This document shows, one piece after another, positions 1 to 6,781 of a DNA stretch of 64,000 nucleotides. The stretch is from Candidatus Omnitrophota bacterium (GTDB lineage Bacteria > Omnitrophota > Gorgyraeia > Duberdicusellales > 4484-171): contig JAQVMQ010000001.1 of the NCBI GenBank assembly GCA_028703535.1, positions 8,818 through 72,817 of the forward strand, read 5' to 3'. The translations under genes were made by a program, and so were the position numbers. Within the stretch, counting starts at the first letter, position 1, and each line of letters starts with the position of its first letter. Under the pieces are notes generated by a model. The model had not been told where the DNA came from and did not search any database. It saw only the letters and a program-made list of their open reading frames with translations.

Positions 1-795
1 TTTAAACGCCGACCCGCACAATGCAGGTACGATCTGATTTGCTAGCGTTCCTTTACGAATAGCTTTCATCAACTCATCAGCCGTTATACTTTCACCGCCT
101 TCAAGATATTTTTCCATCAAAGAATCATCAAGTTCAACAGCCTTTTCCAACATTATGTGTTGGTATTCTTTTGCTTTTTCAATAATGTCCTGAGGGATAT
201 CTTCCAAATGAAATTCCTTACCCTGTGTAGCATCATCAAAGACACAAGCTTTCATCTGCAGTAAATCAACCACTCCTCGAAAATTATCTTCTGCCCCTAT
301 AGGTATCTGTAAAGGTATAACATTCGCTTCAAGATCTTTGGTTATTCCCTCGATAACTTCATAAAAATTAGCACCTATGCGGTCCATTTTATTAACAAAC
401 GCTATCTTAGGTACATTGTATTTTTCTGACTGGCGCCAAACCGTTTCGCTCTGAGGTTCAACACCTCCGACAGCACAAAACACAGCAACGGCACCGTCTA
501 AAATGCGCAAAGAACGTTCAACTTCTACCGTAAAATCAACGTGTCCCGGTGTATCAATGATATTTATACGGTGATTTTTCCAAAAACAAGTAGTAGCCGC
601 AGACGTTATAGTTATTCCCCGTTCCTGTTCCTGTTTCATCCAGTCCATCTGTGCGGCGCCATCGTGTACTTCGCCAATTTTATGTGATTTACCCGTATAA
701 TACAGGATATGTTCAGTAACCGTTGTTTTTCCTGCATCAATATGGGCCATGATCCCTATATTCCGCACTTTATCGATACTTACTTGTCTAGCCAT
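1..795 (-). CDS. Elongation factor G paralog, N-terminal G domain (partial; gene continues past window start)
   Basis: Reverse-strand translation from ATG at 793-795 gives [25 protein letters not shown]...DTPGHVDF...NKMDR, the canonical EF-G G1-G4 motifs; about 80 percent nt identity to 5400-5700 inside the fused EF-G gene. Confidence 0.85.
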
Positions 796-908
796 AACAT
801 CTCTCCTTTATAATTCATATTTTAATATTTGAGGGCTTATTATAATAAAAAATACAAAAAAATCAATATAATTCTATAGACCATAATGTTAAAGCGTTTT
901 TACCACTA

Positions 909-935
909 CCAACTCCAAACCCGCATTGGAGTTGG
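909..935. other. Stable stem-loop (10-bp stem ccaactccaa/ttggagttgg, 7-nt loop) between M48 gene stop and EF-G paralog start
   Basis: Perfect inverted repeat read directly; no clear U-tract on either strand, so function (terminator vs leader structure) uncertain. Confidence 0.3.
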
Positions 936-1066
936 GCTACTACCTACTAATCCTTACCGCTGAATTTTAAGATAACTGGCGTATCCGTAAGGTATCAGAC
1001 CTCCAAACTTAGCATCATCAAAAATACCAAGAACCTTAGTATAAAGGTAAAATTAAACACTTACGA

Positions 1067-3205: not shown

Positions 3206-3628
3206 CCTACTTAAAAAGTCATTTATTTTATAGGTAGATACTTGAGCAAACCTTGCAACCTTATATTGTTTTTCATCTTCGGTAATCAATATAGCAGAAT
3301 GTTTTTTAGCAATTAAAATATAAATTAAATCGCCAGCTTTTATATATGGAACATTTAAATCCATATATTCTTTGATAAAATTTTTATCAATATAAACCAC
3401 TTTTGGAGATAGCAAACAAAACTTGTTCAATATATCATCAGTTTTAAAATTATTATTGAGTCTCTCGTTTTCAATTGCAGTTTTAAGCTCTAACACAGCA
3501 TATATTGGTATTGTTATATTAATTTTATTTGATTTAATATACTGCTCTAACCTAAAAGCCAACTCATGGCGTTTTCTAGAAACAATAAACATATCTGTTA
3601 GGACAGATGCGTCAAGGACTACTTCCAT
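3194..3628 (-). CDS. PIN-domain ribonuclease (VapC-like), no adjacent antitoxin gene
   Basis: VLDASVL N-terminal motif (Asp6), VLELK (Glu), AGDLIY (Asp), ITEDE C-terminal acidic motif = D-E-D-D PIN signature; 42-nt gap to upstream EF-G fusion stop. Confidence 0.65.
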   Translation of the reverse strand: MEVVLDASVLTDMFIVSRKRHELAFRLEQYIKSNKINITIPIYAVLELKTAIENERLNNNFKTDDILNKFCLLSPKVVYIDKNFIKEYMDLNVPYIKAGDLIYILIAKKHSAILITEDEKQYKVARFAQVSTYKINDFLSRRKA

Positions 3629-3670
3629 TCTTTGTCTTTCACACTTATAGCTTAAAACTTATAGCTAAGA

Positions 3671-6600
3671 TTATTTCTCTTCACTTTTACGTTTCTTGAC
3701 TTCTTCAACTATTTTAGCTGTCGCCTCACTAGGCACCGGCTCATACCTTGAAAACTTCAAAGAAAAAGTTGCTCTACCGCTACTCAACGATCTAAAAGTC
3801 TGAGCATACCCGAACATCTCTGAAAGCGGCGCTTCAGCTTTTATCTCTTTCTGCGAGCCGTTGACATCCATACTAAGGATTTTCCCTCGTTTGGAACATA
3901 TATATCCAACAATATTGCTTACATATTCCTCAGGAGTAAGAACGCTGATCTCCATATACGGTTCAAGCAATATCGGCCCGGCATCCATAAACGTATTTTT
4001 AAAACATGTACGAGCCGCGACTTTAAACGCCAACTCAGACGAATCAACTTCATGATATGAACCGTCAAGCAATGTAGCCTTCACATCTACAACAGGATAT
4101 CCTGCCAATATACCGCCTTTCATTGCTTCAATAAAGCCTTTCTCCACTGCCGGTATATATGTCTGCGGGATAGCCCCGCCTTTTATTTTATTCTCAAAAA
4201 CAAAACCGGCACTCCGATCCAACGGTTCAATTTTCATTACAACATGTCCGTACTGCCCACGTCCGCCTGTCTGCTTAACATGTTTATATTCGCCTTCTTT
4301 AGATAAACTGAGCGTTTCTTTATAGGATACTTTCGGAGGGCTGACATCTGCATTAACTTTGAACTCCGTTTTTATCCTGTCTACAATGATCTCAAGATGC
4401 AGCTCACCCATCCCTGACAATATAATCTCGTTTGTCTCCTGATCTGTTTCAACAGTAAAGGTCGGATCTTCTTCAACTAATTTCATTATCGCTTTATTAA
4501 GTTTATCCTGATCCTGCCGGCTTCTCGGTGTAACACTTATAGATACGACAGGGACAGGAAACTCTATTGTCTCAAGAATAACCGGCCGATTAACCGAACA
4601 TAAAGTATCTCCCGTAGTCGTATTGTTTAATCCAACAGCTGCAGCAATATCTCCGGCAGCAATAACATTAATATTTTCTTTCTGATTTGCATGCATCTGT
4701 AAAATACGACCTATACGCTCTTTCTTGCCTTTCGTAGCGTTAAAGACATAGGACCCTGCCTGCAAACATCCCGAATAAACCCGGAAATAAATCAATTTGC
4801 CCACATGCGGATCGGCTTGGACCTTAAATGCTAAGGCAGAAAAGGGTTCATTCGTAGCCGCTGATATAACTATCTTTTTTTCATGATCAGCCGGATCATC
4901 CGCCTCAATAGGCGGCAAATCAATAGGTGACGGTAGAAAATCTTTAACAGCATCTAACAAAGTCTGCACGCCTTTATTTTTTAAAGCTGAGCCACACAAT
5001 ATCGGTACAAGTTTATTGGTAACAGTTCCTTTACGCAATGCTTTACGAACCTCATCTTTCGTAACAGACTCCGGCCCTTTAAGATATTTCTCCATAAGAC
5101 CTTCATCAACCTCTAGAGCCTTATCTATCAGCTTTTGATGATACTCTTTTACTTTTTCAGCTATATCAGACGGAATATCTATTTCTTCAATTTCCTTACC
5201 AAGATCATCTTTATACATATACGCTTTGCCTTCTATCAAATCAACAAAGCCTTTAAATTCGCTCTCAGCACCTATCGGTAACTGAATAACCGCGACATTA
5301 GCTTCAAGCCTATTCTCAATACTGTTGACAACCTTAAAAAAATCAGCACCCATCCTATCCATTTTATTAATAAAGGCAATCTTAGGTACATGATATTTAT
5401 CCGACTGACGCCAAACAGTTTCAGATTGTGCCTCAACGCCACCCACCGCACAAAAAACAACAACCGCGCCGTCCAAAACCCGCAAAGAACGTTCTACCTC
5501 AGCGGTAAAATCAACGTGCCCCGGTGTATCAATGATATTTATACGTGTATCTTTCCAAAAACAGGTAGTAGCCGCGGACGTAATAGTAATACCTCGTTCT
5601 TGTTCCTGCTTCATCCAATCCATCTGCGCAGCACCATCATGAACTTCTCCGATCTTATGCGACTTCCCTGTATAAAATAATATACGTTCGCTTATTGTTG
5701 TTTTTCCTGAATCTATATGCGCAATTATCCCGATATTGCGTAGTTTTTCAAAATCAACAGAAATATCAAGGTCTTCATCATCATCCGCGTGTGCATTTAT
5801 AACCGCATTATCCAAAGAAACGTCATCCCGAGATTCACTAACTTTACCATTATTTGTCTCCGGCACAATTTCTATAACTTTATCCGGGGAGATTGCAACA
5901 TCGTCCGATAAGACATCATCCGATAAGACCTCATCCTCAACAGACAGACCATGTTCAGAAACATTCTCATCGGATAACATCTCTGCTTCAGTATCGCTAA
6001 TCGATTGAGTATCTTCATCCGTATCCGTAATAATTTCTTTTTCAATTGGTCCAATAACTCTTGAGCTCTTAAGTTCATCAATAGTTTTTTTTAATTCATC
6101 AACCAAGCTATCTCTATGCTCAAGCTGTTTACCTCGATAATCTAAATCGCCTTTGAGTATCTCAAACTCCTCTTCAAGTGCGTGATATTCATCTCTTGAT
6201 ACCCAGTCGCTCTGTTCCATTTTACGTAACGCGTCATTAAGCTTACTTTTAACTGCTTGTTCACTTTTTAATACCGTATCAAGCCTATCTGTCAAAATAC
6301 GTATTTCTTTATCTTTTTCAAAAGACTTATTGGTAAGATCGGAAATGTCACTCTGTAAATCAGAATTTTCACTTTTTATTTTTATGTTTTTAGAAAATTC
6401 TCTCTCAAGTTCAATATCTTTGTCAATAATACGTTGTTTGAGCTCAGCAAGCTGGTTATACAATTTTTCAACCTGTTTCTTCTCTTTCTCTTCCCACTCT
6501 TTCTCCTTAGATATTGCAGTTTCAAGTTCAGAGTTTTTCTTAGACAATAAGGCTATCTTCTTTGTTTTTTCATCTATATCTTTATCCGCCAGCTCAAGTT

Positions 6601-6781
6601 TTGCGTTAAGTCCCGATAACTGTTCTTTCAACTTTTCGCCATGTTCTCTTAAATTTTGAACAGTTTGTTTAAGATTTTCTTTGTCAACTTTCTGTTTTCG
6701 TTTTTTAGGGTTGGGTTGATTAACCGCATAAAGACTCAAGCCCACACCGGCAAGCACCAATACTGCTAAAATAAATTCCAT
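3671..6781 (-). CDS. EF-G paralog fused to N-terminal transmembrane anchor + long coiled coil + acidic Ser/Asp-rich linker (1036 aa)
   Basis: Continuous ORF from ATG 6779-6781; residues 1-20 hydrophobic TM ([20 protein letters not shown]), about 30-240 K/E-rich heptad coiled coil, about 240-345 D/E/S-rich with [11 protein letters not shown] repeat, then full EF-G ([22 protein letters not shown], domain [13 protein letters not shown]) with no internal start codon at the EF-G boundary. Confidence 0.8.

Follow-up and report, generated by a model that had tools for sequence, protein, structure and literature searches.

An apparently ancient pair of EFG I-type elongation factors in Omnitrophota, one with a predicted membrane-anchor module, beside the str-operon fusA

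How are three genes for elongation factor G (EF-G) in one bacterial genome related, and what could keep all of them? EF-G is among the most conserved and best-studied proteins of translation. The question is raised by a 64-kb stretch of the Omnitrophota contig JAQVMQ010000001.1, hereafter the window, which holds three EF-G homologs that we named copies A, B, and C. The initial annotation of this DNA, made from the sequence alone, had also counted three homologs, and we searched the window by tblastn with the EF-G part of B. The search returned A, B, and C, tuf weakly, and nothing else, in agreement with that count. The three genes are placed as follows:

1..795, minus strand: copy A, a short (soluble-type) EF-G of EFG I-like character, with its first 265 codons inside the window and the rest past the window start.
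6781..3671, minus strand: copy B, an open reading frame of 1036 amino acids with a whole EF-G at residues 341-1029.
3674..5776, minus strand: the EF-G moiety of copy B, residues 336-1036, with domains G, G', II, III, IV, and V.
63096..64000, minus strand: copy C, the str-operon fusA, represented by its C-terminal 300 codons and continuing past the window end.

Copy C lies directly upstream of tuf (61839-63047), followed by rpsJ and the S10 and spc ribosomal-protein operons, so that fusA, tuf, and rpsJ are contiguous; neither A nor B has a str-operon location. A and B are on the same strand, 2.9 kb apart. Copy A begins with an ATG at 795-793, seven bases after a Shine-Dalgarno sequence (AAGGAG, 808-803), and its 265-codon frame is intact, with motifs G1-G4 and the beginning of G5. 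Copy B contains the Pfam domains GTP_EFTU, EFG_D2, EFG_III, EFG_IV, and EFG_C. We lean, with moderate confidence, toward the following answer: all three genes encode EFG I-type EF-Gs, and A and B would form an old pair, one soluble and one membrane-tethered, divided by location.

We assessed the type of each copy with protein family models. On the EF-G model TIGR00484, residues 341-1029 of B scored 1037.6 bits against a cut-off of 659.4 and covered model positions 4-690 of 691. Copies A and C scored 443.6 bits (positions 1-263) and 398.8 bits (positions 393-685), values proportional to their lengths, since partial copies are unable to reach a whole-protein cut-off. The EF-G2 models gave B 512 bits against a cut-off of 890 (NF009377) and 518 against 1000 (NF058620), and the RF3, LepA, and TypA models stayed far under their cut-offs. 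Among solved structures, the best matches of A, B, and C were the canonical EF-Gs of Thermus thermophilus, Escherichia coli, and Staphylococcus aureus, about equally; for the C-terminal halves of B and C, respectively, the T. thermophilus protein gave 344 and 358 bits and the E. coli protein 318 and 311. T. thermophilus EF-G-2 (1wdt), the mitochondrial factors, and the TetM/TetO/TetQ chains ranked far below these canonical EF-Gs. In the G domain, A and B were 61-71% identical to the best EF-Gs from metagenome contigs among the matches listed, most of which are str-operon genes.

The sequence motifs agreed with these scores. Both A and B have RGITI, have no KDG three-residue insert in switch I, and align without gaps to E. 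coli EF-G through 52-69. Both copies preserve the P-loop, the switch that carries the catalytic His, and NKMD, and both read AHID(A/S); G5 reads SALKNKG in B, while A ends inside G5, after SAFK. The catalytic His and the domain-IV tip had been proposed as a check on function: B keeps both, and A keeps the His and ends before domain IV. By these sequence criteria, A and B are of the EFG I type. The earlier label "non-canonical" is thus correct for their genomic position, but it does not fit their sequence, which has RGITI and intact motifs and passes TIGR00484. It is hardly conceivable that A and B are ribosome-protection or resistance homologs, Tet(M)/Tet(O)-like or FusB-related. B does match the Tet models in part, as any EF-G does, but it scored 404.9 bits on tet_protect against a cut-off of 775, set against the clear pass on the EF-G equivalog; in addition, solved Tet proteins score far lower than EF-Gs, and the G' domain and domain-IV loops are of the EF-G type.

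The str location is typical of EFG I and not obligatory, and extra EFG I copies outside the str operon are known. EF-G paralogy itself is a known kind of thing. The extra EF-Gs on record comprise EFG I duplicates, spdEFG1/2, EFG II, and gcEFG2 (PMC3150367, PMC4342817). EFG II or EF-G2 proteins (T. thermophilus EF-G-2 and those of Bacteroides and mycobacteria) are likewise encoded outside the str operon, but they have lost RGITI and have a poorly conserved G domain (PMC3150367), whereas A and B have RGITI and a conserved G domain. The pairs spdEFG1/spdEFG2 (Spirochaetes, Planctomycetes, Deltaproteobacteria) and mtEFG1/mtEFG2 are likewise ancient and lineage-wide, and they are subfunctionalized (PMC3150367; PMC4342817). 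However, spdEFG1 is defined by the KDG insertion in switch I (PMC3150367), which A and B do not have. The spd pairs also replace EFG I, whereas the Omnitrophota genome has a str-operon fusA as well; mitochondrial EF-Gs score far below canonical EF-Gs, and neither the spd nor the mt pairs have a membrane anchor. Omnitrophota are often grouped with the PVC (Planctomycetes-Verrucomicrobia-Chlamydiae) lineages.

We then compared A and B with their relatives. The best 120 protein-database matches to B were nearly all from Omnitrophota or Omnitrophica where a name was given, and they fell into two sizes: about 100 were 960-1180 amino acids long with 270-500 residues ahead of the P-loop, and a dozen were about 700 amino acids long with about 16 residues ahead of it. 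Scanning one genome per species yielded 305 relatives (best match 59%), of which the best 80 were fetched, giving 78 loci from metagenome-assembled genomes (MAGs), L001-L078. These best 78 loci contain 60 long genes, 21 short genes, and 1 gene cut by a contig end. The 21 short forms have uninterrupted frames, and the five that we wrote out are 697-704 amino acids long. Copy A resembles the short family in its 16-residue N-terminus before the P-loop and in its non-str position, its length beyond 265 codons lying outside the window. Copy B has every element of the long family: a hydrophobic helix, a coiled coil with the W, EFSKN, and SxWV motifs, an acidic linker, and a complete EF-G. None of the 82 short and long genes lies beside rpsL (S12), rpsG (S7), or tuf, in contrast to 65 of 69 EF-G genes from unrelated metagenome contigs, among the matches listed, that sit in a classical str operon. 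Both families conserve the G and domain-IV motifs at 90% or above, with the loops GGRGQYGH and GSYHEVDSS of domain IV intact in B and in short and long forms of full length.

Seven other assemblies carry both types. In L009, L015, L047, and L052 they lie within 10 kb of each other on the same strand, and in L047 they are directly adjacent, with a gap of 329 nt (8533-8860); in JAUVUO01, CAYVYJ01, and JAHJCI01 they are on separate contigs. The same-strand and sometimes adjacent arrangement suggests that the duplication was probably tandem.

The duplication had been described as relatively recent, and we examined the divergence of A and B. They share 70.5% amino-acid identity over 261 residues (BLASTP E = 4e-135), in line with the earlier figure of about 70%, and their alignment has a single indel, of one residue, in G'. 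At the DNA level, identity is 72% across 777 nt (about 71-72% overall). For the segments 441-700 and 5400-5660, where about 80% nucleotide identity had been claimed, we found 83% over 227 nt; this segment is the switch I-II core, under stronger constraint than any other part of the G domain. At third codon positions, identity is 49%, where about 30% is expected from composition alone. Synonymous sites are saturated (proportion of differences pS 0.65, synonymous divergence dS about 1.5), the non-synonymous divergence (dN) is 0.22, and the dN/dS ratio of 0.145 indicates that both A and B are under purifying selection. The claim that both copies are about 50% identical to the C-terminus of fusA applies to B, which is 49.3% identical to C over 292 amino acids; A covers EF-G residues 1-265 and C about residues 393-692, so these two have no shared part to compare.

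Comparison with orthologs gave the same picture. In the G domain, A is 72-79% identical to foreign short forms (mean 76.1%) and 60-77% identical to long forms (mean 68.7%), with 69.7% identity to B. In 1000 column resamplings, the nearest neighbor of A was a short form in 963, and that of B was a long form in 936; in none of the 1000 was A closer to B than to the best foreign short form. A recent, lineage-specific duplication of A and B, after which one copy picked up the anchor, is therefore highly improbable. It would suit the same-strand position of the genes and the 83% identity of the switch I-II segment, but that segment is merely the most constrained one, the DNA identity is 71% overall, the third positions and dS are as given above, and each copy is nearer to foreign members of its own family than to the other. 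The two families, moreover, span many Omnitrophota MAGs as sister clades, which also contradicts the earlier dating.

A full-length alignment and phylogeny had been proposed as a check, and we built trees of EF-G moieties. The main tree, of full-length moieties, was built by neighbor-joining from 688 columns and 153 taxa, including 66 str-operon EF-Gs with that of E. coli as outgroups. The short and long forms together made one clade on a long stem (200/200), apart from the str-operon EF-Gs; within it, short forms were monophyletic in 184/200 and long forms in 157/200 replicates, with the root between them, so that they are sister groups. Copy B fell inside the long clade, beside L001 and L002. 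In a tree of the C-terminal part (298 columns), short and long forms again grouped together (100/100), and C with eleven close relatives formed a separate clade (100/100) among other bacterial EF-Gs. A sister position of C to the A/B clade appeared in 90/200 replicates when C was included alone and was gone once its relatives were added. The mean pairwise identity was 75.8% among short forms, 67.4% among long forms, and 66.2% between the two; the last two values indicate that the split between the families is about as deep as the deepest splits within them. These findings indicate that A and B are paralogs from one duplication and distinct from the str-operon fusA, as had been proposed. Judged from the sequences, the pair very probably stems from an ancient duplication that took place no later than the base of the sampled Omnitrophota. 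The suggestion that the ordinary N-terminus is ancestral and that the other copy gained the anchor also appears most likely to be right, because all 66 outgroup EF-Gs are without the module and the two families are sister clades.

Copy A could in principle be a truncated pseudogene or an assembly artefact, which would leave the genome with B and C only. What speaks for this is that 265 codons are visible. On the other side stand the intact frame with its start codon, strong Shine-Dalgarno sequence, and G motifs as far as it was read, the dN/dS ratio of 0.145, and the 21 uninterrupted orthologous short forms; the nucleotide difference of 28-29% from B rules out an assembly duplicate of B. We regard a defunct or spurious A as very unlikely.

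The long forms differ from the short ones in their N-terminal module, which in copy B consists of three parts:

6722..6778, minus strand: N-terminal hydrophobic helix (residues 2-20), a predicted signal-anchor, followed by a basic stretch.
6062..6682, minus strand: coiled-coil-like helices (residues 34-240).
5777..6061, minus strand: acidic linker (residues 241-335), predicted to be disordered, variable in length and sequence.

The helix of B has a mean Kyte-Doolittle hydropathy of 2.2 over 19 residues from residue 2 and is followed by a net charge of +4; there is no basic n-region ahead of it and no second hydrophobic segment. Similarly, in 59 of the 60 long forms a 19-residue hydrophobic stretch begins at residues 1-8, again with no basic n-region and no other hydrophobic segment. 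Its mean hydropathy is 2.0-3.3 in all but three, and a net positive charge usually comes next. The region after the anchor consists of about 62% E/K/Q/L/R/A. The last 110 residues of the extension contain 32% D/E and 7% K/R in B, and 26% and 12% on average in the long forms; this linker is the least conserved region, with a mean majority frequency of 0.25 across 72 long forms. By comparison, the coiled-coil region of the same 72 forms holds near-invariant positions (W96, K121/L125/F129/V133/L135, and S191/W193/L202), which lie in three motifs: W96, EFSKN(V/I)xL (119-135), and S(D/E)WV(S/T)K(D/E)EY (191-206).

We modeled B with AlphaFold2, using the alignment of the 72 long forms (mean predicted local distance difference test score, pLDDT, 79.8; predicted template modeling score, pTM, 0.64). 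The model has a helix at residues 2-20 followed by a disordered basic stretch, then helices at 34-190 and 196-240 (pLDDT about 80-88), interrupted precisely at the SDWV motif. Residues 241-335 are without structure (pLDDT about 25), and the EF-G fold that follows is confident, mostly above 90. These results suggest that B is probably tethered to the membrane by its N-terminal helix, and the conservation of the coiled-coil motifs suggests a specific partner or a defined oligomer.

Pfam models applied to the module alone found none over threshold and just coiled-coil noise. Among 1.84 billion representative proteins, 63 collinear matches of 141-489 amino acids carried the module motifs. We considered a stand-alone donor of the module and rejected it, because the matches examined read as N-terminal pieces of long EF-Gs, three of them continuing into the G domain and the best one being cut off by the end of its contig. 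On the present sequence searches, the module is known only in this EF-G fusion.

Four NCBI entries named "elongation factor G" (P0041, P0049, P0095, and P0100; 797-871 amino acids), all from Omnitrophota chromosomes, appear to be long forms whose start was called late, so that the hydrophobic helix is lost from the annotated protein. L002 and L009, which come from the same two chromosomes, encode full extensions of 368 and 367 residues.

From these observations we propose the following explanation. Copy C would be the ancestral fusA in the str operon, and A and B would have arisen from one old, probably tandem duplication before the sampled Omnitrophota diverged. The A type (about 700 amino acids) would have stayed an ordinary, slow-evolving soluble EF-G, while the B type (about 1000-1080 amino acids) would have gained the anchor helix, a coiled coil of about 200 residues, and an acidic disordered linker of about 100 residues. 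With this module, an entire and catalytically competent EF-G would sit in the cytoplasm, linked to the inner membrane by a long, flexible tether. The hydrophobic N-terminus, which lacks a basic region ahead of it and is followed by positive charge, would fit an N-out/C-in topology, which is also favored because only that topology gives the EF-G access to ribosomes and GTP. With 157 helical residues (about 23 nm as a single helix) and about 95 disordered ones, the factor could sweep a shell some tens of nanometers deep under the membrane. Both A and B presumably hydrolyze GTP on the ribosome. The tethered copy may serve membrane ribosomes, in co-translational insertion or in membrane-proximal recycling, and the soluble copy or copies the bulk cytoplasm. 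Since the catalytic and decoding-center elements are conserved and one alignment column separates the families, both would do ordinary EF-G chemistry and differ in place. That the pair has been kept because of this division by place is a tentative suggestion, about which we are not quite evenly balanced and lean toward doubt.

The G' domain may hold a further clue. For the same genome pairs, G' identity is 55.4% between long forms and 73.9% between short forms, while the other domains differ by 0-6 points, which indicates that the long forms evolve faster, with most of the excess in G', the domain that contacts the L7/L12 stalk. A relaxed G' might mean, speculatively, that a tethered and locally concentrated factor needs recruitment by L7/L12 less. 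The fullest form of the proposal, an Omnitrophota-wide three-EF-G system in which one active EF-G is permanently membrane-tethered, elongation or recycling is spatially partitioned, and G' relaxation reflects a lower need for L7/L12, is possible but doubtful.

A different reason for keeping several copies is suggested by copy C. In the domain-IV tip of C, GSYQDTDSS and GGNGQ take the place of GSYH(584)DVDSS and GGRGQ in E. coli, so that Gln stands for His584 and Thr for Val in loop 2, and Asn for Arg in loop 1. The His is kept in eleven close relatives of C (P0121-P0133) and in at least 90% of the 66 outgroup EF-Gs. From these substitutions, C may be functionally drifting in this lineage. Savelsbergh et al. 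in 2000 are said to have found that substitutions of His583 strongly slow translocation. The copies could thus be kept by a split between translocation and recycling, as in P. aeruginosa EF-G1A/EF-G1B, Borrelia spdEFG1/2, and mtEFG1/2, with C altered at the tip and the A-type and B-type families keeping the consensus. There is a precedent within EFG I: in P. aeruginosa, EF-G1A, the str-operon copy, translocates poorly, works with RRF, and is not sensitive to fusidic acid (PMC3832671). EF-G1A and EF-G1B are likewise EFG I-type paralogs with their G motifs kept (Palmer et al. 2013, PMC3832671), and they show that near-canonical copies can differ in translocation versus recycling and in fusidic acid sensitivity. 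However, the Pseudomonas pair is 84% identical, soluble in both members, and without an anchor, whereas A and B are about 70% identical to each other and about 49% to fusA, belong to apparently phylum-wide families in a set of three copies, and include a protein with a predicted membrane-anchor module of 340 residues. Moreover, the His-to-Gln change is private to this genome, the short and long forms keep all translocation-relevant motifs with one discriminating column, and such a split leaves the conserved anchor unexplained. We consider a division by activity unlikely as the reason for the three copies; it is compatible with a division by place rather than exclusive of it.

Other observations concern the relatives of C. 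L160 carries a 74%-identical relative in the same fusA-tuf-S10 context. An apparent family of 332-residue truncated EF-Gs (P0123, P0126, P0127, P0129) was rejected, as gene callers had started at an internal Met (MHA(N/S)KQE) on contigs that begin inside fusA. The contigs of two samples (L160 1-1017 and L161 1-1017) share the exact base at which they start within a C-type fusA, which suggests that assembly repeatedly breaks within fusA in these organisms.

The surroundings of A and B in the window are as follows:

796..1066, minus strand: intergenic region 5' of copy A, with AAGGAG at 808-803 and promoter-like hexamers at 892-839.
1067..2305, minus strand: M48 (Ste24/HtpX-type) membrane metallopeptidase (Pfam PF16491 and PF01435).
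2413..3183, plus strand: trypsin-like serine peptidase with an N-terminal hydrophobic segment (Pfam PF13365).
3194..3628, minus strand: PIN-domain gene directly downstream of B (Pfam PF01850).
6782..7542: intergenic region of 761 nt between B and the M16 gene, with a promoter-like site at 6850-6821 on the minus strand.
7543-10140, plus strand: double M16 peptidase gene, divergent from B across the 761-nt spacer.

The pair had been described as bracketed by peptidase and PIN genes. This does not describe the locus, since the M48, trypsin-like, and PIN genes sit between A and B, and only the M16 peptidase gene flanks B. The PIN gene has no counterpart beside EF-G in any related locus and is probably a local insertion. 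The peptidase genes, in contrast, keep their position around the long form in its nearest relatives: M16 and trypsin-like genes at L001 5-5648, and M48 genes at L002 14245-15405 and L012 6088-7269. In L001, the closest locus, the trypsin-like homolog adjoins the long EF-G in the same position and orientation as in the window. An M48 homolog lies within 10 kb of a long or short EF-G in 6 of the 78 loci (L002, L010, L012, L015, L024, and L067), and in L015 it is immediately upstream of the short form, as in the window. L009 (8478-9745) and L052 (2665-4001) have the same two small genes between their short and long EF-Gs, one encoding a protein of 243-244 residues that starts (M)xLYGKNSVxERL, a putative SpoU/RlmB-type rRNA methyltransferase, and the other a protein of about 180 residues with a lipoprotein-like N-terminus.

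These neighbors bear on the idea that the long form is a stored EF-G, released by a protease, or one that sequesters ribosomes; the tether would retain the factor, or the ribosomes on it, at the membrane until the linker is cleaved or conditions shift. Its long, disordered, acidic linker would be an obvious cleavage substrate, and peptidase genes recur near the long form, namely M48 in L002, L012, L015, and others, and the trypsin-like and M16 genes in L001 and the window. However, M48 genes accompany so few of the loci, the hydrophobic N-terminus of the trypsin-like peptidase would point to secretion, away from a cytoplasmic linker, and the strongly constrained GTPase motifs argue for an active enzyme. 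A storage role is thus improbable, and an active EF-G on a membrane tether is the reading that we retain.

The non-coding regions gave few signals. The 761-nt spacer between B and the M16 gene is unusually long and has one extended -10-type promoter-like site (6850-6821, minus strand); no Rfam family was found in it (6782-7542). Upstream of A, promoter-like sites were not more numerous than in shuffled sequence, and the RNA fold of the 271-nt spacer was not significant (z = -1.0); promoter and terminator scans, Rfam, and folding of the A leader gave nothing beyond chance. Between the M48 gene and A there is a perfect 10-bp inverted repeat, CCAACTCCAA-tgcgggt-TTGGAGTTGG, at about 905-935 in minus reading, with no T-run after it.

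Several points weigh against the proposal of an old soluble and tethered pair divided by place. The insertion of B into the membrane rests on hydropathy, charge distribution, and the AlphaFold2 helix. The trees are neighbor-joining trees with a simple distance correction, in which the monophyly of the long forms has 78% support, and a tree of the G domain alone leaves the split between short and long forms unresolved, with short forms monophyletic in 8/200 replicates when A is included. Copy A was read for 265 codons, and its intact C-terminal two thirds are assumed from the orthologs; protein searches with A and C gave contig-end fragments alone, with no match at 100% identity. In the alignment of short and long forms, one column alone separates all short from all long forms; the sequences thus bear no mark of an altered biochemistry, and division by place is a possible account reached by elimination. 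Codon adaptation relative to the ribosomal-protein genes of the window did not differ meaningfully among A, B, and C; the bias in this genome is weak (reference mean 0.70, background 0.67), and codon usage gives no hint as to which copy is most expressed. The fetched loci are the best 80 of the 305 genome matches, and the spread of the two families through the phylum is given for that sample. In addition, a few loci (L061, L062, L078, L056, L070, and the "binchicken" loci) carry the unconfirmed MAG labels Spirochaetes, Auribacterota, Deltaproteobacteria, or Planctomycetia; these may be mislabeled Omnitrophota, or the short form may reach into neighboring phyla.

Membrane association of ribosome-interacting GTPases has precedents of another kind. 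LepA/EF4 is stored at the E. coli membrane, and FtsY has an acidic N-terminal A domain. Both are, like the proposed B, ribosome-interacting GTPases at the cytoplasmic face of the membrane, FtsY by way of its acidic N-terminal region. However, they bind peripherally or through other domains and are not EF-Gs, whereas B has a predicted integral anchor. All extra EF-G copies described so far are, to our knowledge, soluble, and in the full-text literature on EF-G together with Omnitrophota, Omnitrophica, or membrane anchoring we found no such protein described. Three things appear to be undescribed: an apparently phylum-wide EFG I sister pair that coexists with a str-operon fusA, an extension of anchor, coiled coil, and acidic linker on one EF-G, and the conservation of this extension at the level of particular motifs. 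If the tether is as predicted, B would, as far as our literature search shows, be the first bacterial translational GTPase described as an integral membrane protein.

For annotation, all three genes carry the plain label "elongation factor G", and the starts called by NCBI cut the anchor off some long forms. The interest of the system lies mainly in its tethered member and will be greatest for translation specialists. Omnitrophota, which are very small and mostly uncultured, seem as a phylum to keep a near-canonical EF-G on an apparent anchor, beside a soluble sister and fusA. If the tether is real, it would offer a testable case of spatial control of bacterial elongation or recycling, and a natural experiment on the need of EF-G for diffusion and for recruitment by L7/L12.

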